The notes: a model not told the origin generated them from the sequence alone. A stretch of 64,000 bases of DNA from Bdellovibrionales bacterium (GCA_031426555.1 JANPLN010000023.1:214-64213), one strand, 5' to 3'. Counted from the first letter of the stretch, positions 17,511-35,452 are shown. A program made the numbers and translations.

Positions 17511-17530
17511 AATAAACACGAGGAGAATTT

Positions 17531-18177: not shown

Positions 18178-18180
18178 TCG

Positions 18181-20391
18181 ATGCAGAAATTATTTTTTTA
18201 CTCATTTTTTTTAATTTTTTCTTTCACTCAGAATGCTTTTGCTAAAACTGTTCAATATGAACTCTCAGCATCACAACAATCGGTAAACTTAAGCGGAAAA
18301 CGTAAGATAGACTTCGCTATCTCTCTCAATAACCAAATTCCAGCACCAACATTATCATTCACAGAAGGTGATGAAGCTGAAATTAAAATCATCAACAATT
18401 TAGATCAAGAACTGTCTATCCACTGGCATGGCATTCTTCTGCCTCCAGAGATGGATGGTGTTCCTTATGTGACAACAGCTCCGATCAAAGCCGGTAAGTC
18501 TTTTACATTCAAGTTTAAGATCCGCCAAAACGGCACCTACTGGTACCATTCTCACACAGGACTCCAAGAACAAAAGGGAGTGTATGGAGCCATTGTTATT
18601 CACCCGCAAAAACAAAAAATAAAAGTCGACAAAGATGTGACTGTCGTCCTCAGCGATTGGTCCGACGAAAATCCCGATCAAATTTTAAAAAATCTGAGAA
18701 AAGATGGTGATTATTATCTCTATAAAAAAGGCACCATTCGCTCGTGGTATGGAGCCATTAGCCAAGGTGAAGGTGCTTTGGGGCGCTTTTTATATAACGA
18801 ATGGACCCGTATGGGTGGAATGGACCTTTCGGATGTTGGCTACGATGCTTTTCTCATCAATGGGATGCGCGATGTTCAACTCGTGGAAGGACACCCTGGG
18901 GAACGTATTAGATTAAGAATTATTAATGCCGGAGCCTCGTCATACTTTTTCGTCTCTCTTGCCAACCTGCCATTCACTGTTGTGTCTGCTGACGGCATTG
19001 ATATAGAACCATTAAACTCCAAAGAATTACTTCTAGGCATGGCCGAGACCTACGATATTGTTTTTACCATCCCTGAGCATAAAAATTTTGAACTAAAAGC
19101 CACAGCGCAAGACGGTACGGGTACAGCATCTGGTTGGATCGGCATGGGGGAAAAAGTCTTCGCCCTGAACAAGCCAAAACCCGATCAGTATGCATCGATG
19201 GAGCATACAAATCACGGAAGTGCGCACGCTACAGATCAAAAGATGAGCCACGATGAGCACTCGATGAACCATGAAGCACATACTTCTGACAAAGAACAGC
19301 CACAAACAGATCATAAAAACCACTCCCCTCCTTCGGAACATACACAGCACGATACTCATCAGAAAAGTGTTGCGGTCGCTGTAAATCAATTCGCTCATTT
19401 GCCGACACTGGAATCGTTGACGGTAGACGATATTAAGTCTCGCGAAACCACTCTGTTTGATGCCAATACTCCAGTGCATGACGTAAAGCTCGTTCTCGGT
19501 GGGGATATGTCTCGCTACATTTGGTTTATAAACGGGAAAACGATTCAAGAAGATAGAAATATAATCATTAAAGAAAATGATGTTGTCCGGTTTACATTGG
19601 AGAATCAGACAATGATGCATCATCCGATGCATCTTCACGGGCACTTTTTCCGAGTTGTAAATAAATTCAAAGAAAAATCTCCACTCAAGCATACAGTAGA
19701 TGTTCCTCCTCACCAGACGAGAACGATTGAGTTTTTAGCGAACGAACCCGGGGAATGGATGCTCCATTGCCATAATCTCTATCACCTCAAAACTGGAATG
19801 GCTCGCGTAGTAAAATATTCCTCATTTACGCCAAAACCGGAAATCGCTAAATGGCAAAAAGATGATCCACACAACCACGATCATTGGTACAATTATGGAC
19901 TCCTCGAAACTTCTTCGAATCATGCACAAGGATATTTTAGTCTTTCGCAGACATGGAATCAGTTTGAGGCAAGGGTTGAAACTGCAAATATTCAGAATAA
20001 GCAGTTTGCTTTTGAGGGGCGAAATTGGGATTACGAAGTAGATCTTTTTTATCGACGCTGGTTGAACAGATATTTCAATGTCATCGCTGGTGGAACGAAC
20101 TATGGTGAAGAAAATAAAGCTGTCATAGGCGTTGGCTACCTACTTCCCTTTCTAGTTCGAACAAACTTGCTCATTAATAACTCTGGTAAAATAAGGATTG
20201 ACGTTGATAAGCGGTTCCAATGGACCAAAACCGTTTTTACTGATGTTGAATACAGCTTACGACCGAACCAGAATGGCGAACACGAATCAGAACTCGAGGT
20301 TTCTTTGATGTATTCGCCAAAGTGGTCATGGGCTGCTGGCCTTATGCTTACTAATGACAGTCTCGGTGGCGGCGTTGAAATCCAGTTTTAA
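18181..20391 (+). CDS. Multicopper oxidase (CopA/PcoA-like) fused to a C-terminal CopB/PcoB-like outer-membrane domain
   Basis: MCO copper sites HWHG, WYHSH, HPMHLHGH and HCHNLYHLKTGM. A His/Met-rich linker. The last ~180 aa (HDHWYNYGLLE...YFNVIAGG...GVGYLLPF...GGGVEIQF) parallels the PcoB barrel pattern and ends in F. Confidence 0.75.
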   Translation: MQKLFFYSFFLIFSFTQNAFAKTVQYELSASQQSVNLSGKRKIDFAISLNNQIPAPTLSFTEGDEAEIKIINNLDQELSIHWHGILLPPEMDGVPYVTTAPIKAGKSFTFKFKIRQNGTYWYHSHTGLQEQKGVYGAIVIHPQKQKIKVDKDVTVVLSDWSDENPDQILKNLRKDGDYYLYKKGTIRSWYGAISQGEGALGRFLYNEWTRMGGMDLSDVGYDAFLINGMRDVQLVEGHPGERIRLRIINAGASSYFFVSLANLPFTVVSADGIDIEPLNSKELLLGMAETYDIVFTIPEHKNFELKATAQDGTGTASGWIGMGEKVFALNKPKPDQYASMEHTNHGSAHATDQKMSHDEHSMNHEAHTSDKEQPQTDHKNHSPPSEHTQHDTHQKSVAVAVNQFAHLPTLESLTVDDIKSRETTLFDANTPVHDVKLVLGGDMSRYIWFINGKTIQEDRNIIIKENDVVRFTLENQTMMHHPMHLHGHFFRVVNKFKEKSPLKHTVDVPPHQTRTIEFLANEPGEWMLHCHNLYHLKTGMARVVKYSSFTPKPEIAKWQKDDPHNHDHWYNYGLLETSSNHAQGYFSLSQTWNQFEARVETANIQNKQFAFEGRNWDYEVDLFYRRWLNRYFNVIAGGTNYGEENKAVIGVGYLLPFLVRTNLLINNSGKIRIDVDKRFQWTKTVFTDVEYSLRPNQNGEHESELEVSLMYSPKWSWAAGLMLTNDSLGGGVEIQF

Positions 20392-20412
20392 CAAAATAGA
20401 ATCTCCTTGACG

Positions 20413-20450
20413 AACCTTATATACTATACTACCCTATAGTATATAAGGTT
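20413..20450. promoter_or_regulatory. Perfect 16-bp inverted repeat, candidate CsoR operator
   Basis: AACCTTATATACTATA-ctaccc-TATAGTATATAAGGTT, ending 15 nt upstream of the csoR ATG. Confidence 0.55.
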
Positions 20451-20465
20451 CACAAAAGGCGGTTT

Positions 20466-20765
20466 ATGGCTAAGCAAAAAACAACTCTCAAAGACCCCAA
20501 CACTCACCCCGACCACTCGGGTCAGAAAAGCCGTGTCAATCGCATCCGCGGTCAAATCGATGGAATCGAACGCATGATTGATGAGCGGAGATACTGTGTA
20601 GATATTGTTCAACAGATCAAAGCCGCTCGCTCGGCACTGACTGGGCTCGAAAACTCAATTATTGAAACTCATCTTCGAGGTTGTGTTCAAAGCGCAATGA
20701 CCTCGAAAGACGCTCACGATGCTGAACAAAAAATTCAGGAAATTATGAAAATCATGGCTAAATAG
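20466..20765 (+). CDS. csoR: CsoR-family copper-sensing transcriptional repressor
   Basis: [23 protein letters not shown]...ETHLRGCV carries the C-H-C ligand pattern of CsoR. Confidence 0.85.
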
Positions 20766-20785
20766 CCACGAGAAGGAAGTACATT

Positions 20786-23155
20786 ATGGATCAACCACAA
20801 AGTTCCAATCACAATCATCACGAACATCATTCATGCTGTTCAATTGATAAGAAAACAAATTTAGAAAATACAAGTGTTATAGATCCTGTATGTGGCATGA
20901 CCGTCGAGCCCAAAAACGCGAAGGGACAATCAGTGCGCAAAGGGAATTCCTACTTTTTTTGCAGCGCCAAATGCAAAGTAAAGTTCGATGAAAATCCAGA
21001 AAAATATTTGAACAAAGAAAAATTCCACGAAGCCACTTCGTCGAAAGATATTGAATATACCTGCCCAATGCACCCTGAGATCATTCAAATGGGCCCTGGT
21101 TCGTGTCCAAAGTGCGGAATGGCCCTAGAACCTCTAATGATCTCACTCGATCAAGAAGAGGATAATAGTGAATATCTGGACATGAAGAAACGATTTTGGG
21201 TTGCTACAGCACTCTCGATTCCTCTTCTTTTTATAACTATGGGCGGGCGCCATCTTATTCATAGCTCACTTCTTCAGTCACTTTTTGGTTATATTGAATT
21301 CTTACTTGCAACACCCGTTGTACTTTGGTGCGGATGGCCGTTTTTTGAGAGATTCGCACAGTCCTTAAAAAATAAAAGTCCCAATATGTTTACGCTCATT
21401 GGACTAGGGGTCGGAGTTTCATATATCTTTAGTGTTATCGCCCTATTCTTCCCCCATCTCTTTCCGGGATCCTTCATAGATCCAATGACTGGGTACGTTG
21501 GGTTATATTTTGAACCCGCTTCAGTGATTGTAGCGCTAGTTCTTCTAGGTCAGGTTTTAGAGCTGAAAGCACGCGGGCAAACTGGTGCCGCAATCAAAGC
21601 TCTTCTTAACCTTGCGCCAAAAAATGCGACAAGAATTAATTCTGATGGAAGCGAAGATGAAGTTTCCATGGATCAAATACGCATTGGAGACACTCTGCGC
21701 GTTCGTCCCGGCGAAAAAGTTCCCGTTGATGGCATTGTGGCATCCGGTCAAAGTACCGTGGATGAGTCGATGATTACAGGAGAGCCACTACCCGTTCAAA
21801 AGTCCCCTGGGGACAAAGTCGTCGGAGCTACGATCAATGGCACAGGCTCATTTATCGTGAAAGCTGAAAAGGTCGGAAAAGACTCCTTATTAGCGCAAAT
21901 AGTTCAGATGGTTTCGGATGCACAACGCTCACGGGCGCCGATTCAAAAACTTGCCGATCAGATTTCTGCTTTTTTCGTGCCTGCCGTAGTTCTCGCAGCA
22001 ATAGTCACAGCGGTTGTGTGGAGCATTTGGGGCGTCGAGCCGAAGTTCGCTTACGCTGTTGTAAATGCTGTAGCAGTTCTTATTATCGCATGCCCGTGTG
22101 CCCTCGGACTTGCGACCCCTATGTCAATCATGGTTGCCACTGGTCGCGCAGCAGGAATGGGAATTTTATTTAAAAATGCTGAATCCATTGAAACGCTTAG
22201 AAAAGTAAATGTCTTGGTCATTGATAAAACTGGGACAGTTACAGAAGGTAAGCCAAAGCTGATGGAAGTTAAAAGCTATTCAGATAAATCTACAGATGAA
22301 ATTCTTCGCTTAGTTGCCACCTTGGAAAAGGAAAGCGAACACCCCTTAGCCTCGGCCATTGTTGCAGGAGCATCTCATTTGAAGCTTGGCCAAACGGAAT
22401 CGTTCACTTCTATAACTGGAAAGGGAACACAGGCAATTGTAGAAGACAAGTTAGTTCAAATTGGAAATATTTCTCTGATGAATGATTCTTCTATCTCTAC
22501 CAATTCGGCTGAAAAGTATTCTGATGAATTGAGAGGTCAGGGGCATTCAGTTATGTACGTTGCTATCGAAAAGACTTTCGCAGGAATTATAAGTGTAGCT
22601 GATCCAATAAAAAAGACATCATTAGATGCGATCAAAGAATTAAAACACTCAGGCATCAAAGTCATCATGCTTACTGGAGATAATCAAAGAACCGCAGCTG
22701 CCGTTGCCAAGTCTGTAGGTATTGACGACGTCGTCGCCGATGTTCTTCCTCAGCAAAAAACGGATGTTATTAAAAGATTGCAGGCTGAAGGAAAAATTGT
22801 GGCCATGGCCGGAGATGGCATCAACGATGCCCCTGCTCTAGCACAAGCCCAAGTTGGTATTGCGATGGGGACAGGCACAGACATCGCGATAAAAAGCGCG
22901 GGAGTTACTCTTGTAAAAGGTGATTTAAAAGGAATTGTTAGCGCGATAGCAATCAGCAATGCGACAGTTAGAAACATCAAACAAAACTTGTTTTTTGCAT
23001 TTTTCTACAATGCTTTAGGCGTACCGGTTGCTGCGGGAATTTTATATCCTTTTTTCGGTATTCTTCTTAACCCTATGTTTGCAGCATTGGCTATGAGCTT
23101 GAGCTCTGTGTCAGTTATTGCGAACGCTTTGCGCTTAAGATCTAAGGCCCTTTAA
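20786..23155 (+). CDS. copA: Copper-translocating P1B-type ATPase
   Basis: CPC in TM6 ([11 protein letters not shown]), [13 protein letters not shown] and TGE. The N-terminus has a His-rich tract, a TRASH/YHS-like DPVCGMTV...FCSAKC segment and CPMHP...CPKCGM. Confidence 0.9.
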
Positions 23156-23263
23156 TTGCTTTCGCAGGTCAGCAAAACTTTGGCCTGCAACTTTTTAGTT
23201 CTGTTAAGTTGAACTGTCAATTTTTACACAGAAAAGTCGTAATTTGCTAAAGTATAGGCAATC

Positions 23264-23608
23264 CTACAAAAATCCAAACCGACGTAGAAGTAAAGAATAA
23301 AAGAAATAAAAAATTCCCAGACTAATAATACTGATAAAAAGAGAAGCCCAAAAATTGAGTCCAAATTTTAGTAGCACTGGTAAAAGTAAGAAAAACCCAA
23401 GTGATGGTAATACAAACCAGAATATACCCAAAGACAACTCAGATACTTTTGTTACATCACTGGACTTAAAATAAAGCATAGACAGTGCTAGAACAGAGGT
23501 TAAGGGTAACGACACTAGCAGTGAGGATAAAAAGCTTGAACGATTCGAAAGCTCTACTGCACTGGCTATAACGATTGCAGAAATTAAAGTATTTAATATA
23601 AATTGCAT
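23264..23608 (-). CDS. Small 4-TM membrane protein, hypothetical
   Basis: 114 aa, four hydrophobic helices, last gene of the minus-strand efflux operon. Confidence 0.5.
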   Translation of the reverse strand: MQFILNTLISAIVIASAVELSNRSSFLSSLLVSLPLTSVLALSMLYFKSSDVTKVSELSLGIFWFVLPSLGFFLLLPVLLKFGLNFWASLFISIISLGIFYFFYSLLLRRFGFL

Positions 23609-23637
23609 AAATTATTTCCTTATTTAAAAAAGTCTGT

Positions 23638-24888
23638 CTACTGTATTTCACTTTTACTTAACAAATGGCCTCTGGTTATATAAAAATCTCTTAACATTTC
23701 ATTATATTTTGTTTTTACTTCTAAAAGTTTATCTACAGATCCAAGAACATCGGGGGAGTTTTTCACTCCTCTAGAGTATTCATTCAATGTCAACTTTAGA
23801 TAATCTTGAGCTCGCTTTATGTTTTCTTCAGCATCGTGAATTTGCCGATGCAGAAAATTTAAAGAAGCAATTTCAGAATGGGCTTCATTTTCAATTTCAC
23901 GCTCTAAATATTTTGCTTCCGACTTAGAACTTTCAGATTCTGCATAAAGAGCCGCGGCCTCTTTGTTGCCTGTTGTAAAATCAAATAAATTCATTGTGGC
24001 TCTTATGCCTACGACAGTCTCTTTACCCTCTTGAGGTCCGAATACATTACCATTTCTGACGTTGTACTGATTTAAAGCAACAAAACCATCTATTCTTGGC
24101 CACCATGAGCGCGACTGCATTTTTGCAGACAATTCGTTTTCTTCAGCTTGAACCAAGTGGGGTTTGGCTAAAAACTGATGTTGAATCTCAGAGTGATTAT
24201 TCACTTTTTCCATTCCTTCAAAATGATCCATATTATCTGCTAAAGAAACTTTAGAGTCTTCTTCATAGCCAATCAAATTTAGCAATTCTCTTTTTAAAAT
24301 CTCTTTTTGCATATTCAAATGTTCAGAAGCGCGTTTTAATTCAGTATCTTTGATCTGAAACTCATAAAGATCTGCGCGTGTGGTTAGACCTGTTTTAACT
24401 CGCCTTTCGGCAGAGGTCAGATTTGATAAATTAATTCTTTTTATTTCATCCAACAAAACCACAGTTTTATCTATATAAACCAAATTCCAATAGGTCTCTT
24501 TGGCCTTTATGATCTCGTGATAGAGGGCAACTTTTTGCTCAGATTCGCTGCGAACTTTTCGTTTATTCACAATTTTATTATTCAAACTGTCTCTTGTTCC
24601 GTTAAACAAATTCACACTTATCTCGCCACCATAAGTTGGCTGAGTTCTTGTGTAATTATCACCAAGTTGAAAACGCTCATGCGCCCCATACAGTTTTAAA
24701 TTAGGGAAAAAAGATCTTTTTAAGAATCCTTGTCGATGTGACATAGCTTTAGTCTGATGGCTTTTACTAATAACACGTTCATTTTGACTCTCAACTAATG
24801 ATTTTAAATCTTTAACCTTCAAATTAAGTTCAGTTTGAGAATGAGCGTATTGCGAAACGAAAAATGTAATCCAAAAAAATAATTTCAT
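23638..24888 (-). CDS. TolC-family outer-membrane efflux protein (CusC/CzcC-like)
   Basis: 416 aa, signal peptide, two repeated coiled-coil/barrel halves typical of the OEP family. Confidence 0.75.
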   Translation of the reverse strand: MKLFFWITFFVSQYAHSQTELNLKVKDLKSLVESQNERVISKSHQTKAMSHRQGFLKRSFFPNLKLYGAHERFQLGDNYTRTQPTYGGEISVNLFNGTRDSLNNKIVNKRKVRSESEQKVALYHEIIKAKETYWNLVYIDKTVVLLDEIKRINLSNLTSAERRVKTGLTTRADLYEFQIKDTELKRASEHLNMQKEILKRELLNLIGYEEDSKVSLADNMDHFEGMEKVNNHSEIQHQFLAKPHLVQAEENELSAKMQSRSWWPRIDGFVALNQYNVRNGNVFGPQEGKETVVGIRATMNLFDFTTGNKEAAALYAESESSKSEAKYLEREIENEAHSEIASLNFLHRQIHDAEENIKRAQDYLKLTLNEYSRGVKNSPDVLGSVDKLLEVKTKYNEMLRDFYITRGHLLSKSEIQ

Positions 24889-24935
24889 AAAAAACCCCGT
24901 GAGTTAATAGGGCCTAAAATTAGGCCCAAGAATAT

Positions 24936-25388
24936 TTAATCTAGATTGTCAAAAGCAGTGAGCAGTTCTTTACTCCCATCTTTCAAAACAACATCAATAT
25001 TGTAAGGTTTTGATTCTGGCTTTGGCATTTTTCCAGAAAAAATTCCATCTTTGGCGTCAAGAGCAAAATTTGTTGATACCCACTTACCTTTGACCTTTGA
25101 TGCTAAAGAGGCTGATGCCTGAGGCGAAAAGTTTTTTATATCTAATGCAAACATCTTTTCATTGTATAAGTAGACTCTGACAGTTCCATCTGTAGAGCGA
25201 ACTAACTCTGCCTTGTAAACTAACGCAGCTTTTGATCCAATCTTTGCGTCTTGTTTTTGAACGACGGCAGATACAAGGCCGCCATACTTACCCGTATCGG
25301 CAAGCTTTGGTCCGTGGCCTTCATCGTGCGCATTCGCCAATCCTAAAAATCCTATTGTTATTGCGATTAAAACTAATCTCTTTTTCAT
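24936..25388 (-). CDS. Small periplasmic protein with predicted N-terminal His, translationally coupled to the RND pump
   Basis: ATG 25388 overlaps the cusA-like stop (ATGA). Signal peptide ...GLANA|HDEGHGPKLADTGKYGG. Paralog of 14428-14847. Confidence 0.6.
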   Translation of the reverse strand: MKKRLVLIAITIGFLGLANAHDEGHGPKLADTGKYGGLVSAVVQKQDAKIGSKAALVYKAELVRSTDGTVRVYLYNEKMFALDIKNFSPQASASLASKVKGKWVSTNFALDAKDGIFSGKMPKPESKPYNIDVVLKDGSKELLTAFDNLD

Positions 25389-28300
25389 TTCCACTCTCCT
25401 TCGTTTGTTTGGTTTTGTTGTTTCATATAATTAATAAATGCTTTTTTGCCGAATTTAAGAAATATAGTGGGTGTCACCACAAGATCTAATAGGGTTGACG
25501 ATATCAGCCCACCTACAATCACAACTGCAACCGGATAAAGAATTTCTTTTCCTGGTTCTCCCTTGGATAATAGCAGAGGTACTAACGCAAGGGCTGCGGT
25601 AGAAGCTGTCATTAAGACGGGTACAAGTCTTTCTAATGATCCTCGAATTACCATTTGCGCATTAAACTCTTCACCTTCTTCTTTCATCAGATGAAGGTAG
25701 TGGCTAATCAGTAAAATTCCATTTCGACTTGCAATTCCACAAAGGGTGATGAATGCCACAAGCGTTGCGATTGAAAGTGTTCTCTCAGTCAGATAAATTG
25801 CAATAATACTTCCAATCACTGCCAAAGGTACATTCATCATAACCTGAAGACTAAGAATAGCTGATCTAAAATGAATATAGAGAACCAAAAATATCCCAAG
25901 TAAAGATAAAAGACCTAACCAAAAAATCCGTTTTGATGCGTTTTGCTGGCTTTCAAATTGACCGCCAATTTTAATAAAATATCCTTCTGGCAATTTAACT
26001 TTGTCTGCAATTACTTTTTGAATTTCACTGACAATTGTACCAAGGTCTCTCCCTTGGGTATTTGCAGAAACAACTATTCGTCTTTGCATGTCTTCACGAT
26101 TGATCATGTTGGGGCCTGTCCCTTCGTAAACATTAGCTACATCTTGAAGTAATACTGGTTTTCCTGTGGGCATATATTTAATCAGAGTTTGATTGATCTT
26201 TTCAGTTGTTGCTCGTGACTCATCATCAAGCCTCATAAAAACGTCATGGATTCTTTGATTTTCTAAAAATTGCGAGGCGACCTCACCATTAAGTGCTATT
26301 TCTAAATCTTCTGCCAGTGTTCCTGCTCTGATCCCAAACTGATTTCCACTTTCTCGATCAATGGTTATTTTTAATTGCGGAATAAGAACCAAGGGCTCGG
26401 TTTGAAGGTCTACTACTCCATTTACACTTTTCATGGCATCAAAAATTTCACCACCATAACGCCTAAGTTCACCTAGATCAGGACCAAATATTTTAACAGC
26501 AATTTGAGCTCTCACACCAGATAGTAAGTGATCTAACCTATGGCTTATAGGTTGACCCAAGTTTACATATACATCCCCAGTTTTTTCAATGCGCTCGCGT
26601 ATTTCTGGCAACACCACATGCATAGGTCGGCCTTCGGCCTTAAAGTCCACATCAATTTCACTCCAATGAACTCCTTCGGCGTGTTCGTCCATTTCTGCAC
26701 GACCCGTGCGACGTACTGTTGATTTCACTTCAGGAACTGAAAGAATGGCTTTTTCAATTTCTGCTCCTAATTTATCAGAGGCAGAAAGTGAAATACCAGG
26801 TGCCGCTGCGACTCCAATTGTGGCTGTACCTTCGTTAAAGTCCGGCAAAAAGTTTCTTCCCATGAAAGGCAACAGTGCTAATGAAAATAACAAAAGCAGT
26901 CCCGCTCCTAGCAAAACAATTTTTGGTCGAGGCAAAGTATAATGAAGTATCACTAAGGCTTTGGCTTTTAAAAATCGAACTAAAGGGCCATCTTTGTCGT
27001 GTCCTACGGCTTTTGAAGAGGGTAGTAAAAACGAGCATAAGATAGGCGTCACTGTTAGCGACACAAATAGGGATGCAATGATCGAGATTATATAAGCAAT
27101 ACCTAGAGGCGCAAACAAACGACCTTCTATTCCTCCTAATGCAAAAAGGGGAATAAAAACAAGAACTACAATTATGGTTGATAAAACGATTGAATTTCGT
27201 ACCTCTGATGAGGCCTCATAAATAACCCTCAAGTTTCCTTTGGGTGAACCTAATGCTCGATTCTCTTTTAGTCTTCTAAAAACATTTTCAACATCAACAA
27301 TGGCATCATCCACCAATTCACCAATGGCGATAGCTATCCCACCAAGTGTCATGGTGTTGATACCAAGCCCCATGATTTGGAATACTATCGCCGTCACCAG
27401 AAGGCTTAAGGGGATGGCAACCAGAGTGATTCCCGTTGTACGAAAGTTCATAAGAAACAAAAAAAGAATTATCGCGACCATGATAATTCCATCGCGCAAA
27501 GCTTCTTCGACATTCCCAATGGCTGATTCAATAAAGTGTGACTGTTTAAATAAATCTGTTTCTAAGTGAACACCTTGAGGTAAAGTTTTTTGAGCCTCGA
27601 TGAGTTCTTTATCAATGGCCTTTGTAAGATCTATTGTGCTTGCAGAGGGTTGCTTTTGAACGGTCATTATGACGGAGTGTTTGGCATTTATACTGCCTTC
27701 TCCTCGCTTAGTCTTTGCGCCTATACGTACTTGGGCCACATCTTTAACTAAAACGGGTTTGCCAAAGTGCATGCCGACAAAGGAATTCTCTATATCCTCT
27801 AAACTGGCAACTCTGCCAATGGGTCGAATTAAGAATTCCTTGTCGTTAATATCAATAAAACCACCGGTTGTGTTTTCACTGATTTCAGTGATCGCATGTT
27901 TTAAATCCTCTAAAGATATATTTTTGGCTTGAAGTTTTTGGCTTGAAATTAAGATTTGATACTGCTTAACTTCTCCACCCATAACTATAACTTGGCTTAC
28001 CCCAGGTATTGTCATCAGCCGGGGTCTTAAGGTCCAATCTGCTAATGTTCGCAAATCCATAGAAGATGTTTGTCCATTAGGACTTGTTACACCTACGAAC
28101 TGAATTTCACCCATGATTGAAGTCACAGGTCCCATCACGGGTTGCATGCCAGGTGGTAATCTATTTTGGACGAGTTGCAATCTTTCTGCTACGAGCTGGC
28201 GATTTTTAAAGATCTCTGTGCCCCAATCGAACTCTACATAAACTATAGATACACCTATGCCACTGCTTGATCGCGTTCTTAAAACGCCGGGTGTTCCATT

Positions 28301-28519
28301 TAGAACACTTTCTACTGGAAGTGTGACAAGTGTCTCCACCTCTTCTGGGGCAAGCCCATGGGCTTCAGTGAGCACGGTCACGGTTGGTCTATTTAGATTA
28401 GGAAACACGTCTACAGGTAGATTGGGCACCAACCAAGCCCCATACAAACAAATAGCTATTGAAAATATAACCATTGTCAGACGGTGTTTTAAAGAAAACC
28501 TTATTATTAAGTTCAGCAT
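25385..28519 (-). CDS. cusA: Heavy-metal efflux RND transporter, CusA/CzcA family
   Basis: 1044 aa, 12-TM RND topology with two large periplasmic loops, N-terminal MLNLIIRFSLKHRL... typical of HME-RND. Confidence 0.85.
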   Translation of the reverse strand: MLNLIIRFSLKHRLTMVIFSIAICLYGAWLVPNLPVDVFPNLNRPTVTVLTEAHGLAPEEVETLVTLPVESVLNGTPGVLRTRSSSGIGVSIVYVEFDWGTEIFKNRQLVAERLQLVQNRLPPGMQPVMGPVTSIMGEIQFVGVTSPNGQTSSMDLRTLADWTLRPRLMTIPGVSQVIVMGGEVKQYQILISSQKLQAKNISLEDLKHAITEISENTTGGFIDINDKEFLIRPIGRVASLEDIENSFVGMHFGKPVLVKDVAQVRIGAKTKRGEGSINAKHSVIMTVQKQPSASTIDLTKAIDKELIEAQKTLPQGVHLETDLFKQSHFIESAIGNVEEALRDGIIMVAIILFLFLMNFRTTGITLVAIPLSLLVTAIVFQIMGLGINTMTLGGIAIAIGELVDDAIVDVENVFRRLKENRALGSPKGNLRVIYEASSEVRNSIVLSTIIVVLVFIPLFALGGIEGRLFAPLGIAYIISIIASLFVSLTVTPILCSFLLPSSKAVGHDKDGPLVRFLKAKALVILHYTLPRPKIVLLGAGLLLLFSLALLPFMGRNFLPDFNEGTATIGVAAAPGISLSASDKLGAEIEKAILSVPEVKSTVRRTGRAEMDEHAEGVHWSEIDVDFKAEGRPMHVVLPEIRERIEKTGDVYVNLGQPISHRLDHLLSGVRAQIAVKIFGPDLGELRRYGGEIFDAMKSVNGVVDLQTEPLVLIPQLKITIDRESGNQFGIRAGTLAEDLEIALNGEVASQFLENQRIHDVFMRLDDESRATTEKINQTLIKYMPTGKPVLLQDVANVYEGTGPNMINREDMQRRIVVSANTQGRDLGTIVSEIQKVIADKVKLPEGYFIKIGGQFESQQNASKRIFWLGLLSLLGIFLVLYIHFRSAILSLQVMMNVPLAVIGSIIAIYLTERTLSIATLVAFITLCGIASRNGILLISHYLHLMKEEGEEFNAQMVIRGSLERLVPVLMTASTAALALVPLLLSKGEPGKEILYPVAVVIVGGLISSTLLDLVVTPTIFLKFGKKAFINYMKQQNQTNEGEWK

Positions 28520-28642
28520 ATTGATCTCCGCTTAAGCGAGCCAGCTTAAAAATTCTTTTAAAAAAGAAATTACCAAAGGATTAAGATAGATATAAAATCT
28601 AGCTAAAAAATAGCATTAATTTTTAATATCAATTCTTCGTTT

Positions 28643-29029
28643 TTAGCTGATTGGAGGGCGAAATATAGACCCTAAAATAGGACTTTTAGGGGGTAAATCA
28701 TCATAAATAGAAAATGAAACTGACTCAATCTTAGAAACTGTTTTAAAACTAGTGAGCTGTGAAGCAGTCACAAAGTAGCTACTCGACATTGAAATTGAAA
28801 CTTTGTGAGAGTGTGGTGCAGACGAATCGTGATCTTTGTCTTCATCATTTTGATGATCGTCGTGATGGTAATCTTCTTCGTCTAAATCATGGTGATGATG
28901 TTCTGACACTAACTCATGTGTATGTTCTATTTCAACAGTTACAGCAGGTCCAACAGACCTTGATGGGTCAGAAAAACTTGTACCCAAGGCATAAGTGCTG
29001 ATTATGAGTAAGCAGATAATTAATCTCAT
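28643..29029 (-). CDS. Secreted His/Asp-rich protein (putative metal-binding)
   Basis: Signal peptide, then EHTHELVSEHHHHDLDEEDYHHDDHQNDEDKDHDSSAPHSHK. First gene of the RND operon. Confidence 0.55.
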   Translation of the reverse strand: MRLIICLLIISTYALGTSFSDPSRSVGPAVTVEIEHTHELVSEHHHHDLDEEDYHHDDHQNDEDKDHDSSAPHSHKVSISMSSSYFVTASQLTSFKTVSKIESVSFSIYDDLPPKSPILGSIFRPPIS

Positions 29030-29135
29030 CGACTTTATTATCTCTAACTTTACTTATTAAACGCAAGTAAAAATGTACGCTTGCCCGTATTATTTTTATC
29101 TCAGCTCTTTACTTTCGTTAAGAGCTGAGCTTGTT

Positions 29136-30254
29136 CTATTTACCTAGGATAACTTGTTCGACTTTTGGAGCAACCAAACAGTATGATTCGTCATTCGTCT
29201 GATCACATTCAAATGTGGCAGCTTTATGAAACCTCACAAGACATCCTGGATTTACCATTGCCAGCTCCCCTTCTGATGCGTCAAGTTCATAAGCACAGAA
29301 CTCAATATCATCATCGGTAAATGAGATGTCCAGATCTACGTCAGGAGCCATCCAATCGCCCTTAAAGTTATATGAATCTTGCCCAAATCTAACCCTCGGA
29401 TTGAATGTCACACCATTAAAAGGTTTAAACGGCGTTACTCTAATAGCTCTTAGGTTTATAGCACCACCTGGATCATTGCCATCAGAAGTAATATAGGGCT
29501 GATAGTCATACATTCTTTGGATTATGTCTTCGACAGCAAGAGGGTATATGTTTGTACTTCTCTGCGCCCATTGCTGAATGATTCCAGGATCGTTACCTGC
29601 ATGAGCAGGATCTATTTCAACGAAACCTAAAGTGAAAACAAACAAAAGGCTTAAAATCATGTCGTAGAACTTAAGTCTCCTAAAATTTAGACCGTCTATC
29701 TTTCCTTTTTTAGCGTTATCATGTGCAAACTGTTTTGATTTAAATTTTATAGCTTGGAACATGGCTTTTAACTCCATTGTTTGTTCTGGTGTAAAGAATG
29801 AATCAATTGAATAGTAAGCTCTTGTCTTCCAGTATTCTGGCTTACCTGTGTTTTCTTTCATAATCTCAAAGACCTTGGCGTCTTTCTTAGCCTCAAGATC
29901 TGAGTCGTACTTATAGTCCGAATAGTTAATATAGTTTTCGGGAAAGTTCGAATAATACTTTCCTTCACTAGTGATATGCACAAGACCGCAATCCACATAT
30001 CTAGTTAATACTGATAATGCTTTTTTAGGTGATGGCTCAGGAAATCTTCTTTTCACTTCCCCAAGTGAAAGACTCTGAACTCTTGTTGCATAGAACAACT
30101 TAAGCGAATATTCATCTGCATGAATTTCTTCGATTTGCTCGGGCTGAAGCCTGATGTTTGGCAAATCCTTTAATGTTGTATCTTGTACGTCCCCAATACG
30201 TTTCTCTGTATTTGGCTGCTCCTTTGGCAACCTACTCTCTTTTTCTATTTCCAT
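29136..30254 (-). CDS. Membrane-anchored protein: cytoplasmic winged-helix-like N-domain, one TM, Cys-containing extracytoplasmic C-domain (ToxR-like architecture)
   Basis: LGEVKRRFPEPSPKKALSVLTRYVDCGLVHITSEGKYY looks like a wHTH. TM helix ILSLLFVFTLGFV near residue 205. The C-terminal ~155 aa has 4 Cys. Confidence 0.5.
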   Translation of the reverse strand: MEIEKESRLPKEQPNTEKRIGDVQDTTLKDLPNIRLQPEQIEEIHADEYSLKLFYATRVQSLSLGEVKRRFPEPSPKKALSVLTRYVDCGLVHITSEGKYYSNFPENYINYSDYKYDSDLEAKKDAKVFEIMKENTGKPEYWKTRAYYSIDSFFTPEQTMELKAMFQAIKFKSKQFAHDNAKKGKIDGLNFRRLKFYDMILSLLFVFTLGFVEIDPAHAGNDPGIIQQWAQRSTNIYPLAVEDIIQRMYDYQPYITSDGNDPGGAINLRAIRVTPFKPFNGVTFNPRVRFGQDSYNFKGDWMAPDVDLDISFTDDDIEFCAYELDASEGELAMVNPGCLVRFHKAATFECDQTNDESYCLVAPKVEQVILGK

Positions 30255-30280
30255 TTCATCCCCCCGGAGAAATTAGTTGT

Positions 30281-30727
30281 TTACTTTCTTATCCTTACCC
30301 TATCTGCATGATTGCTTCGTGGCCTTTGATCTGATGATGACTGTCTTGAGAGGACGGCTACGAGTTCTTGCAAATATTCTTTTTTATCTTTTCCCACATC
30401 TTTCGATGTAAAATAAACTTGAGCTTCTAATGTTTTTATTAAACGCTGGTAGTCATCAAACGGAATCTCGCGCAATGCTTCGATCACTTTGATTTCTTCT
30501 GCGTAAACAAAAGCATCATCACTTGAAGAAAAAACATTTAGATTTACACCTAAACAATGAGCGATTCGAACTAGCTCATTAGCCGTTGCTTCTCTCTTGC
30601 CATTCTCAATTTTTGAGACGGAAGACTTTGGCAACTGGGCCATCTCATCAAGTTCGGCTTGAGTGATCTCTTTCGCCTTTCTTAATGATTTTATTTTATC
30701 TGCTAAATCGTGCTGTCTATTCTTCAT
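30281..30727 (-). CDS. XRE-family HTH transcriptional regulator
   Basis: ITQAELDEMAQLPKSSVSKIENGKREATANELVRIAHCLGV is a canonical Cro/C1 HTH. Confidence 0.85.
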   Translation of the reverse strand: MKNRQHDLADKIKSLRKAKEITQAELDEMAQLPKSSVSKIENGKREATANELVRIAHCLGVNLNVFSSSDDAFVYAEEIKVIEALREIPFDDYQRLIKTLEAQVYFTSKDVGKDKKEYLQELVAVLSRQSSSDQRPRSNHADRVRIRK

Positions 30728-30808
30728 GAATCGCTTTAAACCAAATCAGCGAATTAAAAGCAAGTAAAAAGTGTTGACTAAATAATCATATATTCTTTAA
30801 AACGCTTA

Positions 30809-30826
30809 TCTGTATGGGGATACAGA
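30809..30826. promoter_or_regulatory. Palindrome TCTGTAT-gggg-ATACAGA in the divergent XRE intergenic region (candidate operator)
   Basis: 7-bp arms, 20 nt upstream of the 30846 ATG. A TTGACT-N16-TTTAAA promoter-like pair lies just upstream. Confidence 0.35.
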
Positions 30827-30845
30827 GATTTATAAGGGGGAATAA

Positions 30846-31064
30846 ATGAAGGAAATTAAATTATCTAATTTAGCGAATAAAGAATTTCGAGAGCCGGACG
30901 TTTTAATCAAAAATCCGAAAACAATAGAGAGTCGATTAAAAGACGCCATAATGATCCTAGTAGAAGAACTTAAGATCAAAAATGGCAGCTTTAAGATATT
31001 CGTTCACAACGGCAGACCCGGTGAACGCGTTGAGATTCAAAATAAAGTACTGACAGACATCTAA
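30846..31064 (+). CDS. Small protein, YezD/DUF2292-like
   Basis: 72 aa. NGSFKIFVHNGRPGERVEIQNKV resembles the GS..I.V.dG.V..IE motif of DUF2292. Tentative. Confidence 0.4.
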   Translation: MKEIKLSNLANKEFREPDVLIKNPKTIESRLKDAIMILVEELKIKNGSFKIFVHNGRPGERVEIQNKVLTDI

Positions 31065-31169
31065 GATAACTAACCTACCCAGAAAGCCCTGGGCGGTTCT
31101 TTAATCAGAGCACAGGCCAACCACAGCAATGGAAGCCTTACTCTTAAAGACAGTAAATCACTGATCTTT

Positions 31170-31700
31170 TTGAAGGACTATCCAATGGGCAACCAAACAA
31201 AATCTAGTAAACCTTGGCTTAACAGCACAGGCTATCTTTTTAACGATGAAGAATTAAAATCCATATCCAAATCATGGACTCGAAAAACCTGGGAAGAGTA
31301 CCTCGACTATATAGAGACCCCTCGAACTGAATCCATACTTGATGAGGACCACTACACAGGCCTTGCAGAGAAACTTAAATACACCATCGAGCAAGATGAA
31401 GACTGCGACTTAGAAATCGAACTATCTTTAGCTCTGATAAATCTTACAGATAAGCAACGAGAAATTCTTGAATTTATTTTCTGGGATGGCCTCACCACTA
31501 GAGATATTGGTTTTAAGCTTAATATCTCTTCAGCCGCAGTTCAAAAAATTAAAGACCGTGCGCTTATTTCCCTTAAGAAAAGCATAGAGGGGGTTAACAC
31601 CCTACGTATTATAGAGGGTGACATGTCTTCACCTTTCTTGAAACGAGGAGAACAACATGAATCAAAATTTTTCAAACTACAAATCGTCAAAGCTTCATGA
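31170..31700 (+). CDS. Sigma-70 region-4-only (LuxR/ECF r4-type HTH) DNA-binding protein
   Basis: LTDKQREILEFIFWDGLTTRDIGFKLNISSAAVQKIKDRALISLKK. No region 2. Confidence 0.6.
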   Translation: MKDYPMGNQTKSSKPWLNSTGYLFNDEELKSISKSWTRKTWEEYLDYIETPRTESILDEDHYTGLAEKLKYTIEQDEDCDLEIELSLALINLTDKQREILEFIFWDGLTTRDIGFKLNISSAAVQKIKDRALISLKKSIEGVNTLRIIEGDMSSPFLKRGEQHESKFFKLQIVKAS

Positions 31701-31899
31701 ATTAAAATATGTGCTTCCCCTACTTACCGAAGATCAACGCTTAGCGATCTATCTTCGGTTTTGGGAGAACTACAGCATTTTAGAAGTGTCAGACTTTTTA
31801 AAAACAAGCTGGGAAAGCGCAGATGAACTTATCGAAAATGCACTTTCATTTTTAAAAACACAACTATACCAAGAACAAGAACTTCAAATCGCAGCCTAA
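31657..31899 (+). CDS. Second small sigma-70 region-4-only protein
   Basis: LTEDQRLAIYLRFWENYSILEVSDFLKTSWESADELIENALSFLK. AGGAG RBS. Overlaps the previous ORF by 44 nt. Confidence 0.55.
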   Translation: MNQNFSNYKSSKLHELKYVLPLLTEDQRLAIYLRFWENYSILEVSDFLKTSWESADELIENALSFLKTQLYQEQELQIAA

Positions 31900-31912
31900 A
31901 GGAGAATTTAAA

Positions 31913-32305
31913 ATGGAACAAAAAGAACAATCTACCTTCTATAAATTTCAAGTCTATACGGGAACACTCGACGATAATGGAGCCGTCAAAAAAGAAAAGT
32001 CTGTTGGTTTTGCTACCCTTAAAGAAGGGCAAGACATGTACAGCGTTAAGCTTTGGACGTTTCCGCAAGAAAAATATTACTTGATACCTACAAAAGATGA
32101 TCCAACGAAAATCTTAATTATGACCAGAGAAGAGAAAAAAGCGCCTTCGCAAAATAATCGAAAATACAACTGGAGCATTGTTGGCAATGGAACCGTCATC
32201 AGTCAAAAGGGTGTCGCCTTTCTTGATTTTGATTTACTACCGCTTTCAATCTTTATGAGCATTTATCCAGACAAACCAAACTCAAACAATTTACATGCTG
32301 CTTAA
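31913..32305 (+). CDS. Hypothetical protein preceding the T4SS genes
   Basis: 130-aa ORF with RBS AAAGGAG, no recognisable motif. Confidence 0.5.
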   Translation: MEQKEQSTFYKFQVYTGTLDDNGAVKKEKSVGFATLKEGQDMYSVKLWTFPQEKYYLIPTKDDPTKILIMTREEKKAPSQNNRKYNWSIVGNGTVISQKGVAFLDFDLLPLSIFMSIYPDKPNSNNLHAA

Positions 32306-32324
32306 AACAGTTAAGGGGAACTTT

Positions 32325-32612
32325 ATGAATAATAAAAATAAAATCTATTTTACTATTGGGCTTATGATCACAATGTTGATTTTACCTGAGCTTGCTTTCG
32401 CAGGTCTTGAATCAAGTCTTATTGGACTTAAGAGTAAACTCACAGGCGTCATACTGCCCGTTCTATCTGTGATAGGGATTGCAATTGGAGCTATCTCATT
32501 TTTTACAGGAAATCCGAATGCTAAACAGCACATCGCATATGCTGTCATGGGCTGCATCTTTGGATTTGGCAGCCAAGCCATCGTTGATTTCATCGCACAG
32601 ACAGTTCACTAA
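32325..32612 (+). CDS. virB2: VirB2/TrbC-like T4SS pilin
   Basis: ATG 32325 after AAGGGG. Long signal peptide ending AFA, then two hydrophobic helices separated by a short polar loop, 95 aa. Confidence 0.65.
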   Translation: MNNKNKIYFTIGLMITMLILPELAFAGLESSLIGLKSKLTGVILPVLSVIGIAIGAISFFTGNPNAKQHIAYAVMGCIFGFGSQAIVDFIAQTVH

Positions 32613-32624
32613 GGGGATTTAAAA

Positions 32625-32957
32625 ATGAGCGATCAAGGACTACTCACCTCATCAGTACCAAGAAGCTTAGACACTAAGAACAAGCTTTTTGGATTTGAGA
32701 TTCCAGACTTACTTTTTATTTTTATGAACTTGGCCCTGACCAATTTGATCTTTGGGTCCTCCAGATTCAGATACCCTCTGGTCTGGGGATCTACGATCCT
32801 TATTGCTTTAGCCATCTATTTTTTAAAAAAGGGAAAGCCTGACAACTACATTCAGCATCTTGGTGAGTATATTGCCCAAAGCTCTGTGAAACTCGCAGGA
32901 AAAGCAGATCTCAAACACAAACCGTTTTCTATAGGAGACACAAATGGGAGCATTTAA
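32625..32957 (+). CDS. virB3: VirB3/TrbD/TraL-like T4SS inner-membrane protein
   Basis: 110 aa, two TM helices, positioned between the pilin and VirB4 and overlapping virB4. Confidence 0.55.
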   Translation: MSDQGLLTSSVPRSLDTKNKLFGFEIPDLLFIFMNLALTNLIFGSSRFRYPLVWGSTILIALAIYFLKKGKPDNYIQHLGEYIAQSSVKLAGKADLKHKPFSIGDTNGSI

Positions 32958-35451
32958 AGAAAAAGAATCCTCACTCTGCGAAGAACTCCCCTTTTGGGAT
33001 TTCTTCTCTCATCCAATTTCGCACATAGTTTTAAATGACTCTTCCATAGTCACTGGGTTTCAAACAGAAGTGATTGATATTGAGTGTTTGGACGACAATG
33101 AAGTGAATAATTTGACGGTATCTTTAAGAAACTGCTTAAACTCAGTATCTGAAGGCACACATATTCAGTTCTTCTTAGATGTGGATTCTGACTACAGTGA
33201 GCTGACACAGAAACATGTGGATTTAAGATCAAAGACTCTTCACCCACTGATTCAAGAGATTGCAAACTCTAGAGATTCAGTTTTAAAAAACGATATTATT
33301 ACCCGTGCCCTTTTTAAACCTAAGCTTAATGTCTTTTTAAGACGAGAAATTGAAGCCAAAAGCACAATGTCTATCTTTAAGAAACAAGAAGAATTTGAGA
33401 AGATGGGTGTCGATCTTTATTCGGATCTTATGGATTCTATTTCTCAAGATATAGAATCTCTTAAGTCCTCATTTAATAGCCTTGGATTGGATACGATTGA
33501 TTTAACAAAGACAGATTTTATTTCTGATCTTTATAAGTTCTTTAATCCAAAACGAAGCGAAGAGCTTCCTGCACCAAGATTGATCACGACAACTGAAAAA
33601 GAAGTCGAAGCTTCAATTAAGCTAGAAGAAGAGTGGTTATCTAACAGCTCACCCAGAGAGCAATTGGTTTTTGGGGATCTGGTTTTGAGTCTTAAGCAGT
33701 TCACCTTAGATCAACACTACCATCGAATCATAAGTCTTAAAACTCTGCCCGAGAACACCTTCGCAGGACAACTCAGTAATTTTTTAAGAATGCCATTTCA
33801 TTATTCTTTACTACTTTCGATCTATGTTCCCTTCCAAGCTTCGGAAATGGAAAAGCTCCAGCAAAAGAGAAAAATGGCTCACTCCCTTGCCGCAACAAGT
33901 GGTGGGAAAGCTACTGACTTAGAGAGCGAATCGAAACTTTCGGCCACTGAAGAGTTAATCCGTGAGTTATTAAATACAGGTCAAAGAATTTATTCAGTTC
34001 AGATGAATTTAATTTTAAAAGAAGAGGCTTCAGCAGAAGGTGAAAAACTTCTTAACAAACAAGTGCGTGAAGTTTTATCACGATTTCGATCCCTACAAGG
34101 GGCGGAAGCCCTAGAAGAGACTGTTGGGTCTTGGAAAGTCATTAAGGGCAATTTCCCAATGGCCCCTGTAAAGCTTGAACGTGCCAAAAAAATGAAAACT
34201 AACAACTTGGCCGACTTCCTTCCGATCTATGGCCCAAGGAAAGGTGATTCAAATCCCGTAGTGCTTTTTAGAAATAGATTAAATGGTCTTGTAAGCTTTG
34301 ATCCTTTTGATTCGAAACTTAATAACTACAACTGTCTTGTGACTGGATCTTCTGGATCAGGAAAGAGTTTTTTAAATAACTGTATTTTACTTCAAGAGAT
34401 GGCGCGAGGCCTTAAGGTATTTGTCATTGATATTGGCGGGTCTTATAAAAAACTGACTGAAGCCTTAGATGGTCAGTACATTGAAATGGATTTATCTGAG
34501 AAATACAAAATTAATCCTTTTCATATCCAAGAGATAGAACAGGGTCCAAGCAATCAAAAGATTAAATCTTTGATCTCGATGGTTGAGTGCATGGTCACAG
34601 AAGAAGGACTTGATAAATTAGATAAGCTTTCTAAAGTTCAACTCGAAAAAGAAATCATTGATCTATATGAAGAGAAAAAGAAGAAGAATGAAGTTCCAAT
34701 CTTAAGTGACCTCGAAAAAAGATTGTCGCTTTCAAAAGACGATAACCTTAAGAGACTGGCAAAGATGCTCTACATTTGGACAGGAGATCGCCCTTACGGA
34801 AAACTTCTTGATGGATACGGAGCCTTAAGAACCAATGCTGATATTTGCTCTTTTGATTTAAAAGGCTTGTCTCAATATCCAGATTTACAAAGTGTGATGA
34901 TTCTAACGCTTACTGATTTTATTTTATCTCAAGTGGAAGGAGATCGTTCCGTCAAAAAGCGAATAATTCTGGATGAAGCATGGGAACTTTTAAAATCACA
35001 AGCGGCCGCAAGCTTTATGGAATACGCAGCACGAACTTTAAGAAAGACTGGTTCTGGAATCACCTTTATCACCCAAGGGGTCGAAGAGATTGCGAACTCC
35101 CCTATTGGGTCAGCCATCTTGAACAACACTTCGACAAAAATTCTTATGTTACAAAGAGGCGACATTGAAATTCTAAAAAAGTCTTTGAAGATCAATGACC
35201 AAGAGCTTGAGCTGATTCAGTCCCTGAAACAAAAGAAAGGGTTCTATTCTGAGGGGTTTTTGATTGAAGGCTTAGAAAGCCAAGTCATACAGATTCATCC
35301 CTCCCCTATGGAGTATTGGCTTGCAACCAGTGATGCCTCTGACAACAACTACCTAAATAGTCTTACAACAGGTGGTTTGTGCCTTAAGGACGCAATCCTC
35401 GAAGCAGCCAAGACGTACCCTCAGGGTATTTCGCAACCCAAAGGAGGCTAG
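32944..35451 (+). CDS. virB4: VirB4/TrbE/TraC T4SS ATPase
   Basis: 835 aa. Walker A VTGSSGSGKSF, Walker B RIILDEAWELL. Confidence 0.9.
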   Translation: MGAFKEKESSLCEELPFWDFFSHPISHIVLNDSSIVTGFQTEVIDIECLDDNEVNNLTVSLRNCLNSVSEGTHIQFFLDVDSDYSELTQKHVDLRSKTLHPLIQEIANSRDSVLKNDIITRALFKPKLNVFLRREIEAKSTMSIFKKQEEFEKMGVDLYSDLMDSISQDIESLKSSFNSLGLDTIDLTKTDFISDLYKFFNPKRSEELPAPRLITTTEKEVEASIKLEEEWLSNSSPREQLVFGDLVLSLKQFTLDQHYHRIISLKTLPENTFAGQLSNFLRMPFHYSLLLSIYVPFQASEMEKLQQKRKMAHSLAATSGGKATDLESESKLSATEELIRELLNTGQRIYSVQMNLILKEEASAEGEKLLNKQVREVLSRFRSLQGAEALEETVGSWKVIKGNFPMAPVKLERAKKMKTNNLADFLPIYGPRKGDSNPVVLFRNRLNGLVSFDPFDSKLNNYNCLVTGSSGSGKSFLNNCILLQEMARGLKVFVIDIGGSYKKLTEALDGQYIEMDLSEKYKINPFHIQEIEQGPSNQKIKSLISMVECMVTEEGLDKLDKLSKVQLEKEIIDLYEEKKKKNEVPILSDLEKRLSLSKDDNLKRLAKMLYIWTGDRPYGKLLDGYGALRTNADICSFDLKGLSQYPDLQSVMILTLTDFILSQVEGDRSVKKRIILDEAWELLKSQAAASFMEYAARTLRKTGSGITFITQGVEEIANSPIGSAILNNTSTKILMLQRGDIEILKKSLKINDQELELIQSLKQKKGFYSEGFLIEGLESQVIQIHPSPMEYWLATSDASDNNYLNSLTTGGLCLKDAILEAAKTYPQGISQPKGG

Positions 35452-35452
35452 T

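Follow-up and report, generated by a model that had tools for sequence, protein, structure and literature searches.

To our knowledge, all tripartite exporters of the resistance-nodulation-division (RND) type that have been characterised structurally and genetically need an adaptor to recruit and open their outer-membrane channel. A 64,000-nucleotide stretch of DNA from a Bdellovibrionales bacterium (GCA_031426555.1 JANPLN010000023.1:214-64213; hereafter the window) raises the question of whether an RND pump and a TolC-like channel can also be coupled in another way. Its minus strand carries an operon for a heavy-metal-type RND pump and a TolC-family channel in which no gene encodes an adaptor, also known as a membrane-fusion protein (MFP). 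A first analysis made from the sequence alone (the sequence-only reading) had offered three explanations, namely that the adaptor is encoded elsewhere, that the pump is defective, or that a 150-aa protein encoded between pump and channel serves as a novel adaptor or as a CusF-like chaperone. Here we find that the genes for the pump, the 150-aa protein and the channel form a conserved mobile module without an adaptor gene. Such a module is a natural test of the adaptor rule, and with four genes it could be moved to Escherichia coli. A search of the literature for adaptor-less RND systems or Bdellovibrio heavy-metal pumps did not find this arrangement described.

An operon for a pump and a channel without an adaptor gene

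The operon occupies positions 29029-23264 of the minus strand and consists of five tightly spaced open reading frames (ORFs), every one of which is intact. In the order of reading, these encode a 128-aa secreted protein with a signal peptide, a His/Asp-rich centre and the ending ...SIFRPPIS (28643..29029), the 1044-aa RND pump (25385..28519), a 150-aa secreted β-sandwich protein that we call S150 (24936..25388), the 416-aa TolC-family outer-membrane channel (23638..24888) and a 114-aa protein with four transmembrane (TM) helices (23264..23608). The length of S150 is counted from its ATG; the listed ORF starts two codons earlier, at a GTG. The channel has a signal peptide and matches Pfam OEP (PF02321) in two repeats (E 2.6e-28). 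The 114-aa protein scores 99.7 bits against an NCBIfam PRK09272-type 'hypothetical protein' model, which is under the cut-off, and its gene adjoins the module in about 9 of about 52 related loci and is an optional accessory. The positions and identities given to the five ORFs by the sequence-only reading are borne out by the ORF list, Pfam and NCBIfam.

Direct reading of the sequence also confirms that the stop codon of the pump gene and the start codon of the S150 gene overlap as ATGA (...GAG TGG AAA TGA / ATG AAA AAG), with a GGAG shortly 5' of the S150 ATG. The remaining intergenic gaps of 123, 47 and 29 nt are too short for a hidden gene, and no protein of the operon matches the HlyD/MFP family in Pfam or NCBIfam. 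The earlier statement that the operon lacks an adaptor ORF of 350-500 aa therefore holds. A scan of the operon for promoters and terminators returned sites no commoner than in shuffled sequence.

In combining a CusA/CzcA-family RND, a TolC-family channel and a small secreted protein (the role of CusF), the operon resembles cusCFBA of E. coli. It differs from that system in having no CusB and in the order of its genes, which is leader, pump, small protein and channel instead of cusC-F-B-A.

The module is conserved across phyla

We then analysed one genome per species, and this survey returned 69 loci, 52 of which underlie many of the counts given here. They come from Bdellovibrionales, Pseudobdellovibrionaceae, Bacteriovoracaceae, Oligoflexus (including the cultured O. 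tunisiensis), Elusimicrobiota and Myxococcota. Species-level genomes with the order of pump, 150-aa gene and channel number about 50 and belong to Bdellovibrionota, Elusimicrobiota and Myxococcota. Where the contig is long enough, the pump gene precedes and the channel gene follows that of S150, the exceptions being loci L031 and L076; a channel thus comes after S150 in nearly all loci. This is the gene neighbourhood of the 150-aa family that the sequence-only reading had singled out as a check. The ATGA overlap is the best start of the S150 gene in 40 of the 52 loci and is possible in several more.

Relative to the window proteins, the pumps have a median identity of 73.5% and the S150 proteins one of 56%, as against 28% for the channels; the conserved core of the module thus consists of the pump and S150. 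Even in Elusimicrobiota and Myxococcota, the pump is 67-74% identical to that of the window.

Search for an adaptor gene in the window and in related loci

Adaptor genes were looked for in the window and within 10 kb of the related modules. In Pfam, no HlyD-type family was matched by any of the window's 20 ORFs of 280-600 aa. A home-built MFP profile, which combines E. coli CusB, AcrA, MdtA and MacA with two Bdellovibrionota MFPs, found no match in a six-frame translation of the 64-kb window, and with the same profile no MFP was present within 10 kb of the module in 50 of the 52 related loci. The two MFPs that were found (L013, 16735-17913; L050, 15139-16242) are canonical, CusB-like proteins, and each has as its immediate neighbour an RND gene other than that of the module and only distantly related to it. 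Pfam assignments precomputed for three long contigs gave the same picture, with a pump of 1044 aa, a gene for 148-150 aa overlapping it by 4 nt, an OEP gene and no HlyD family within 10 kb. As a control for a blind profile, Pfam was applied to the genes beside other 'second' RND genes in these loci, and identified OEP proteins, not adaptors.

Among the loci examined, no close paralog of this pump is paired with an MFP; the closest paralog (L069, 1199 bits) is accompanied by an S150-like gene and by no MFP. Close relatives of the CusB-like MFP of L013 occur in only about five Bdellovibrionales genomes. In two genomes (L013/L084 and L066/L085), an MFP/RND pair lies 6-16 kb from the module.

A 372-aa ORF upstream of the operon (29136-30254), which is adaptor-sized and has no Pfam match, was also considered. 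It was rejected as an adaptor since its TM helix is mid-protein, a similarity to MFPs is absent and none of the other copies of the module is flanked by a homolog of it.

Some further pairs were noted on the way. In L008 (4257-8632), L067 (1021-5481) and L059 (13495-18055), an OEP gene directly adjoins an RND gene, without an adaptor gene or any small gene in between. Pump and channel pairs without a linked adaptor seem to be common in Bdellovibrionota, Elusimicrobiota and Myxococcota.

S150 is most likely a periplasmic metallochaperone

The S150 family comprises 419 homologs, all of 145-154 aa and without a Pfam domain; where they have been given a name, it is 'hypothetical protein'. Searched exhaustively with a profile, 1.8 billion representatives yielded only 139 clusters, nearly all of them stand-alone proteins of 135-175 aa, and among these no fusion to an adaptor was found. 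In the family alignment, a signal peptide with an A-x-A cleavage site is followed by a mature protein that begins at His. The mature N-terminal tail, HDEGHGPK(L)xDxGK(Y/F)GG, is invariant, as are His23 and His27 (His1 and His5 of the mature protein), Met81, Met123 (in GKMP) and the C-terminus LLxAFDNLD. S150 has no membrane anchor.

An AlphaFold2 model of S150 shows an eight-strand β-sandwich with one helix. The mean pLDDT is 84 over the full length, in which the tail is disordered, and 93 for residues 35-152. When this fold was compared with the PDB, the top TM-scores were those of Helicobacter pylori CrdA with and without silver (0.61/0.66, with an rmsd of 3.5 Å, and 0.57/0.62; probability 1.00), and the sequence identity was about 10%; the match is a resemblance of the modelled fold, homology being unproven. 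No MFP chain is among the 50 best PDB fold matches listed for either S150 model. By hhalign, the probability of a relationship is 0.1% with six MFPs and 4% with the small proteins of sister operons that are described below. By every test applied, of sequence as well as of fold, S150 is not a shrunken adaptor.

Because S150 is secreted, has a modelled fold that may be CopC-like and carries an invariant flexible His tail together with two invariant Met residues, it is most likely a periplasmic metallochaperone. Of the two roles that had been proposed for it, that of a chaperone thus gains from the CrdA-like sandwich and the invariant His and Met residues, and that of an adaptor is supported by neither the hhalign nor the fold comparison.

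Some comparisons with known small periplasmic proteins can be made. CusF is an OB-type barrel, from which S150 differs as a predicted Ig/CopC-like β-sandwich without a match to CusF_Ec. The putative metal-binding tail of S150 would recall the N-terminus of CusB as much as it does CusF. With CopC and PcoC, S150 would have in common a secreted β-sandwich of about 100 residues and a mature N-terminus that starts with His, as in the Cu(II) site of CopC (PMC9182242); it differs from them in having no sequence match, an extra helix, the 15-residue invariant disordered tail, the AFDNLD end and a gene that overlaps an RND gene. CrdA is a CopC-family periplasmic copper protein encoded beside the CrdB-CzcB-CzcA pump of H. 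pylori, and has a Met-rich loop and no His (PMC9182242). The H. pylori cluster is similar to the present operon in that it combines the gene of a periplasmic metal protein of CopC fold, which the fold of S150 may resemble, with genes for an outer-membrane factor and a heavy-metal RND pump. It differs in having the CzcB adaptor, and S150, unlike CrdA, has an invariant His-rich tail and two invariant Met residues.

A profile search of the PDB for solved relatives of S150 by sequence retrieved chance matches to ribosomal L6 only, which were discarded. A second family of about 150 aa (proteins P0231-P0257; L009, 8001-8492) has only its N-terminal half in common with S150 (AHxSGHGPxIxGKGPxGG...). 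This family is unlinked to RND genes, and in L009 its gene comes after one for DUF6607.

The pump lacks the CusA methionine relay

The pump matches Pfam ACR_tran over its full length (E 1e-262) and the NCBIfam CusA/CzcA model TIGR00914 with 776.3 bits over residues 1-1023, above the cut-off of 701.45. The nearest solved structures are CusA (487 bits) and ZneA (425 bits). The columns of the CusA site Met573/Met623/Met672 are occupied by Gly, Trp and His. Most other CusA methionines are also replaced (M403 by Leu, M410 by Asp, M486 by Ile, M501 by Cys and M1009 by Leu) and only M391 is kept; these replacements are common to four pump lineages. The pump differs from CusA further in having an AcrB-type proton relay, with Asp-Asp at D407/D408 in TM4, Arg at the K940 column, R971 and T978, which is found in four distant lineages. 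TM4 itself is unusually acidic, reading AIGELVDDAIVDVEN (E401, D404, D405, D409 and E411); in the region of the periplasmic cleft, the pump has the sequences RAEMDEHAEGVHW and SHRLDH.

Judged by these residues, the pump is a distinct heavy-metal RND subfamily that is not of the CusA type and does not use the Cu(I)/Ag(I) methionine relay of CusA, so that a heavy-metal subfamily with another substrate site is defined. Specificity for Cu(I)/Ag(I) is unproven because the CusA methionine sites are absent. The label of a CusA/CzcA-like RND was therefore correct as to family, and the focus on copper and silver that came with it premature. The genomic context suggests a metal: a multicopper oxidase (MCO) and a CopA-type ATPase flank the module in the window, and a pairing with an MCO or CopA recurs in L012, L048, L065, L019, L067 and L044. 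Neighbours elsewhere include CNNM and chromate genes. The CsoR/RcnR-type regulators beside the module were examined for the metal that they might sense, and their fingerprint is ambiguous. Our best guess for the exported metal is copper, with nickel, cobalt and zinc also possible.

Conserved channel tips and small proteins of sister operons

The periplasmic tip motifs of the channel (..TGLTTRADL.. and ..RGVKNSPDVL..) are conserved in 60 module channels. Their consensus across loci is rR..tG..T.aD.y.F and EY.RGVKNspDvL, despite a channel identity of only about 28%. In canonical systems, the tip regions of the channel contact the hairpins of the adaptor. The pump is of the same length as CusA, with small indels only, and the channel is shorter than CusC; in the alignment, no extension able to bridge the gap between pump and channel is visible. 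That the two dock directly would be a guess.

In sister operons, ORFs of 130-203 aa were observed between the OEP and RND genes (L065, 15923-16441, minus strand; L083, 10674-11285, plus strand; L048, 14515-14901, plus strand). None of their products matches Pfam. Each has a TM helix at the N-terminal end, contains a stretch rich in His and Glu and a GIKLSxxAxKxxGI strand resembling CusB 79-98, and can be aligned in a C-terminal segment with CusB 322-386, which is a weak link (hhalign probability 39%, E 3e-4). These proteins may be adaptors reduced to the membrane-proximal domain ('mini-adaptors'). If this is so, long hairpin adaptors would be dispensable in these lineages, and the prior for a direct or minimal coupling would be raised.

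The 128-aa protein resembles CutF-like leader sensors

The 128-aa protein has no real match in Pfam or NCBIfam, including none to DUF2946 at E <= 0.1. In the related loci, a small ORF likewise lies directly 5' of the pump gene and encodes an N-terminal signal or anchor, a His-rich and sometimes Cys-rich centre and a conserved end. This end is [FL]RPP[IKT] in 36 of 49 such ORFs and [RK]APP in another 6 (42 of 49 combined). The median gap between the small ORF and the pump start is 78 nt, as against a spacer of 123 nt in the window, where a predicted hairpin stops just short of the GGAG.

CutF-like proteins (CutF, CruR, CopL and CzcI; the DUF2946 class) are reported to lie upstream of genes for ACR_tran and OEP proteins, and to include variants with His only (bioRxiv 10.1101/2022.11.11.516240). 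The 128-aa protein shares with these the Sec signal peptide, the metal motif, the proline-rich motif at the C-terminal end (its FRPPI ending being a putative motif of the CutF type) and the position directly 5', on the same strand, of a metal-efflux gene. It differs from the class in that its metal motif is His-rich and not CxxxC, in the missing DUF2946 match, and in a spacer that is long (123 nt) and not convincingly structured. By its architecture, the protein is best read as a CutF-like regulatory leader or sensor and not as a structural substitute for the adaptor, a fit that the sequence-only reading had missed. The CutF-like leader sensors would thereby gain a member of the His type that ends in FRPPI. 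In all, two new or newly assigned accessory families accompany the module.

A protein of the same leader type, with 85 aa, Cys and His residues and the ending FLFRPPKASV, was seen before the directly adjoining OEP/RND pair of L067.

How the module may work, and alternative explanations

With moderate confidence, we read the locus as a self-contained mobile module of leader sensor, pump, coupled chaperone and channel that has no dedicated adaptor. In such a module, the 128-aa His-rich leader of the CutF kind would be exported co-translationally, and its FRPPI ending and a spacer of about 80-120 nt would tune the expression of the pump by periplasmic metal. The RND would be a working proton-driven pump with an acidic TM4 and with His, Asp and Glu in place of the CusA methionine sites. 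S150 would be made in step with the pump by means of the ATGA overlap and be secreted; its His1/His5 tail, possibly with Met81 and Met123, would bind metal and pass it to the periplasmic cleft of the pump. In doing so it would take the part of CusF, and perhaps that of the metal-binding CusB N-terminus as well. The TolC-family protein would serve as the exit duct.

Several observations weigh against this reading. The pump has no CusA methionine triad, which leaves copper to the context alone, and in Bdellovibrio sp. GT3 the module adjoins a ferroportin-type gene and a regulator with RcnR-like as well as CsoR-like residues, which would fit nickel or cobalt. The Foldseek E-value behind the resemblance of S150 to CrdA, 0.04, is weak; Ig-like sandwiches of this kind are generic, FN3 and Ig domains score nearby, and S150 does not match the Pfam models of CopC and CusF_Ec (PF11604) at E <= 0.1. 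The link between S150 and the pump is one that we infer from gene coupling and sequence. The 123-nt spacer between leader and pump folds no better than shuffled sequence (z = -1.3). The search for adaptors covered the window and 10 kb around the loci, so an unlinked adaptor would be compatible with it, with AcrD and AcrA as a precedent. Finally, the conserved channel tips imply some conserved periplasmic partner or contact, because their motifs are kept despite an overall identity of 28%.

If a canonical adaptor were encoded elsewhere in the genome, S150 would be an accessory chaperone, and the adaptor use across phyla would have to be unusually promiscuous. There is a precedent in E. coli AcrD, a close paralog of AcrB that is encoded alone and borrows AcrA and TolC. 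The module is like AcrD in having a pump gene without a linked adaptor gene; it differs in carrying a linked channel gene, in being mobile and in that a close paralog accompanied by an adaptor was not seen. CusB-like MFPs beside other RND genes do exist in Bdellovibrionota (L013, L050 and more) and in two genomes lie within 6-16 kb of the module, and tip motifs of the kind that normally contact adaptor hairpins are conserved. Nevertheless, we consider a borrowed adaptor unlikely, although it keeps some weight: 50 of 52 loci have no MFP within 10 kb, the two MFPs that were found are encoded beside other pumps, and the L013 type is confined to a handful of Bdellovibrionales genomes. The mobile element brings no MFP along, and with a pump that is 67-74% identical across phyla a specific partner would be needed beforehand in each new host. 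Nor was a close pump paralog with an MFP seen, the closest one having an S150-like gene and no MFP. It is also scarcely credible that the operon is a tripartite system in decay, which has lost its adaptor gene and ceased to export metal. The absence of an adaptor gene is all that speaks for decay; the frames are intact, the order is the same and strongly conserved in about 50 species, and the operon is cargo on a mobile element beside other resistance genes. The conserved order, the ATGA coupling (at least 40 of 52 loci) and the intact relay residues exclude a decaying operon, and with it the suggestion that the pump is defective.

Could S150 itself be the partner, as a new, non-homologous adaptor of which several copies clamp or seal the docking domain of the pump to the channel tips? 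Its gene lies in the slot that separates pump and channel and, as is often so for adaptor genes, is coupled to the pump gene in translation; its invariant N-terminal 15 residues and AFDNLD end suggest protein contacts, and the channel tips are kept where no MFP is encoded. Sister operons, moreover, hold the 130-203-aa 'mini-adaptors', with their weak match to the MFP membrane-proximal domain, in the same slot, so that shrinkage of adaptors may occur. Such a role is nonetheless distinctly improbable, as S150 resembles no MFP domain in sequence or fold, has no membrane anchor and finds its nearest structural relative in a metal-binding protein. Its identity of 56% also departs from the 28% of the channel, which a protein fitting the channel would be expected to track, and the pairs of L008, L067 and L059, with neither an MFP nor a small gene, show that the absence of an MFP is independent of S150.

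The most far-reaching possibility is that a widespread mobile RND family works with its channel without an MFP, coupled to it directly or through S150, which we regard as possible if rather doubtful. Were the module to work alone, it would present a second way of coupling an RND pump to a TolC-like duct and a new family of periplasmic partners. S150 would then be the founder of a class of RND partners that combines the roles of the chaperone and of the adaptor N-terminus, and, together with the mini-adaptors, it would mean that the long hexameric adaptor is no universal requirement of machines made of an RND and an outer-membrane factor.

Remote relatives of S150 linked to RND genes

A 139-aa secreted protein is encoded at 14428..14847 on the minus strand of the window, next to a 252-aa secreted protein with HVHP motifs and no Pfam match (14857..15615, minus strand), the usual partner of the 139-aa family. 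The sequence-only reading had taken the 139-aa protein for a paralog of S150. As a close paralog it was rejected (BLASTP E 0.028; S150 family HMM E 3.5), and what stands is a remote kinship: by hhalign, the 139-aa family (29 members) aligns with the S150 family over 108 columns with a probability of 87% and E 4e-6, as a different family of the same superfamily.

Further members of this superfamily are linked to RND genes. In Oligoflexus (L069, 7200-7631), a divergent 133-aa superfamily gene overlaps the stop codon of the paralogous pump. In L083, a 129-aa superfamily gene lies between pump and channel, a member of the 139-aa family comes after the channel, and a homolog of the 252-aa protein of the window precedes the pump. 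The pair of 252-aa and 139-aa genes recurs in L082, L083, L010 and L066, either beside copper genes (MCO, CopA) or flanking clusters of RND, small gene and OEP. These neighbourhoods and alignments support an RND-linked superfamily to which the S150 and 139-aa families would both belong.

The mobile element and its other genes

The operon is carried by an integrative conjugative element of about 34 kb (13852..48271), which extends from a tRNA-Pro gene at its edge (13852-13928) to a tyrosine integrase at its end (47171-48271). Over 14-48 kb, the GC content is about 0.39, down from about 0.47, and the element encodes TraC/VirB4-like, TrbI and coupling proteins. A repeat marking its attachment site was looked for and not found. 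According to Pfam on its ORFs of 280-600 aa and to the MFP profile, the element carries no MFP.

Next to the operon, the plus strand encodes the MCO (18181-20391; Pfam Cu-oxidase 1-3), a CsoR-type repressor (20466-20765; Pfam Trns_repr_metal) and the CopA-type P1B ATPase (20786-23155; E1-E2_ATPase with YHS and HMBD domains). Further along the element are genes for an arsenate reductase (37665-38075), an ACR3-type arsenite carrier (38072-39130) and an AbiEii toxin (40923-41792).

At its C-terminus, the MCO is extended by about 190 aa (residues 547-736), which have no Pfam match and end in ...GGGVEIQF. This end resembles the terminal-Phe signature of outer-membrane β-barrels, and the protein may be an oxidase fused to a CopB/PcoB-like domain. 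At 15846-17510, between the 252/139-aa pair and the HMA and MCO genes, a gene for an ECF-type sigma factor (15846-16358) is followed by genes for a 180-aa membrane protein and a 220-aa protein ending in ...NFMFHF, both without a Pfam match; this group may be the island's own set of regulators.

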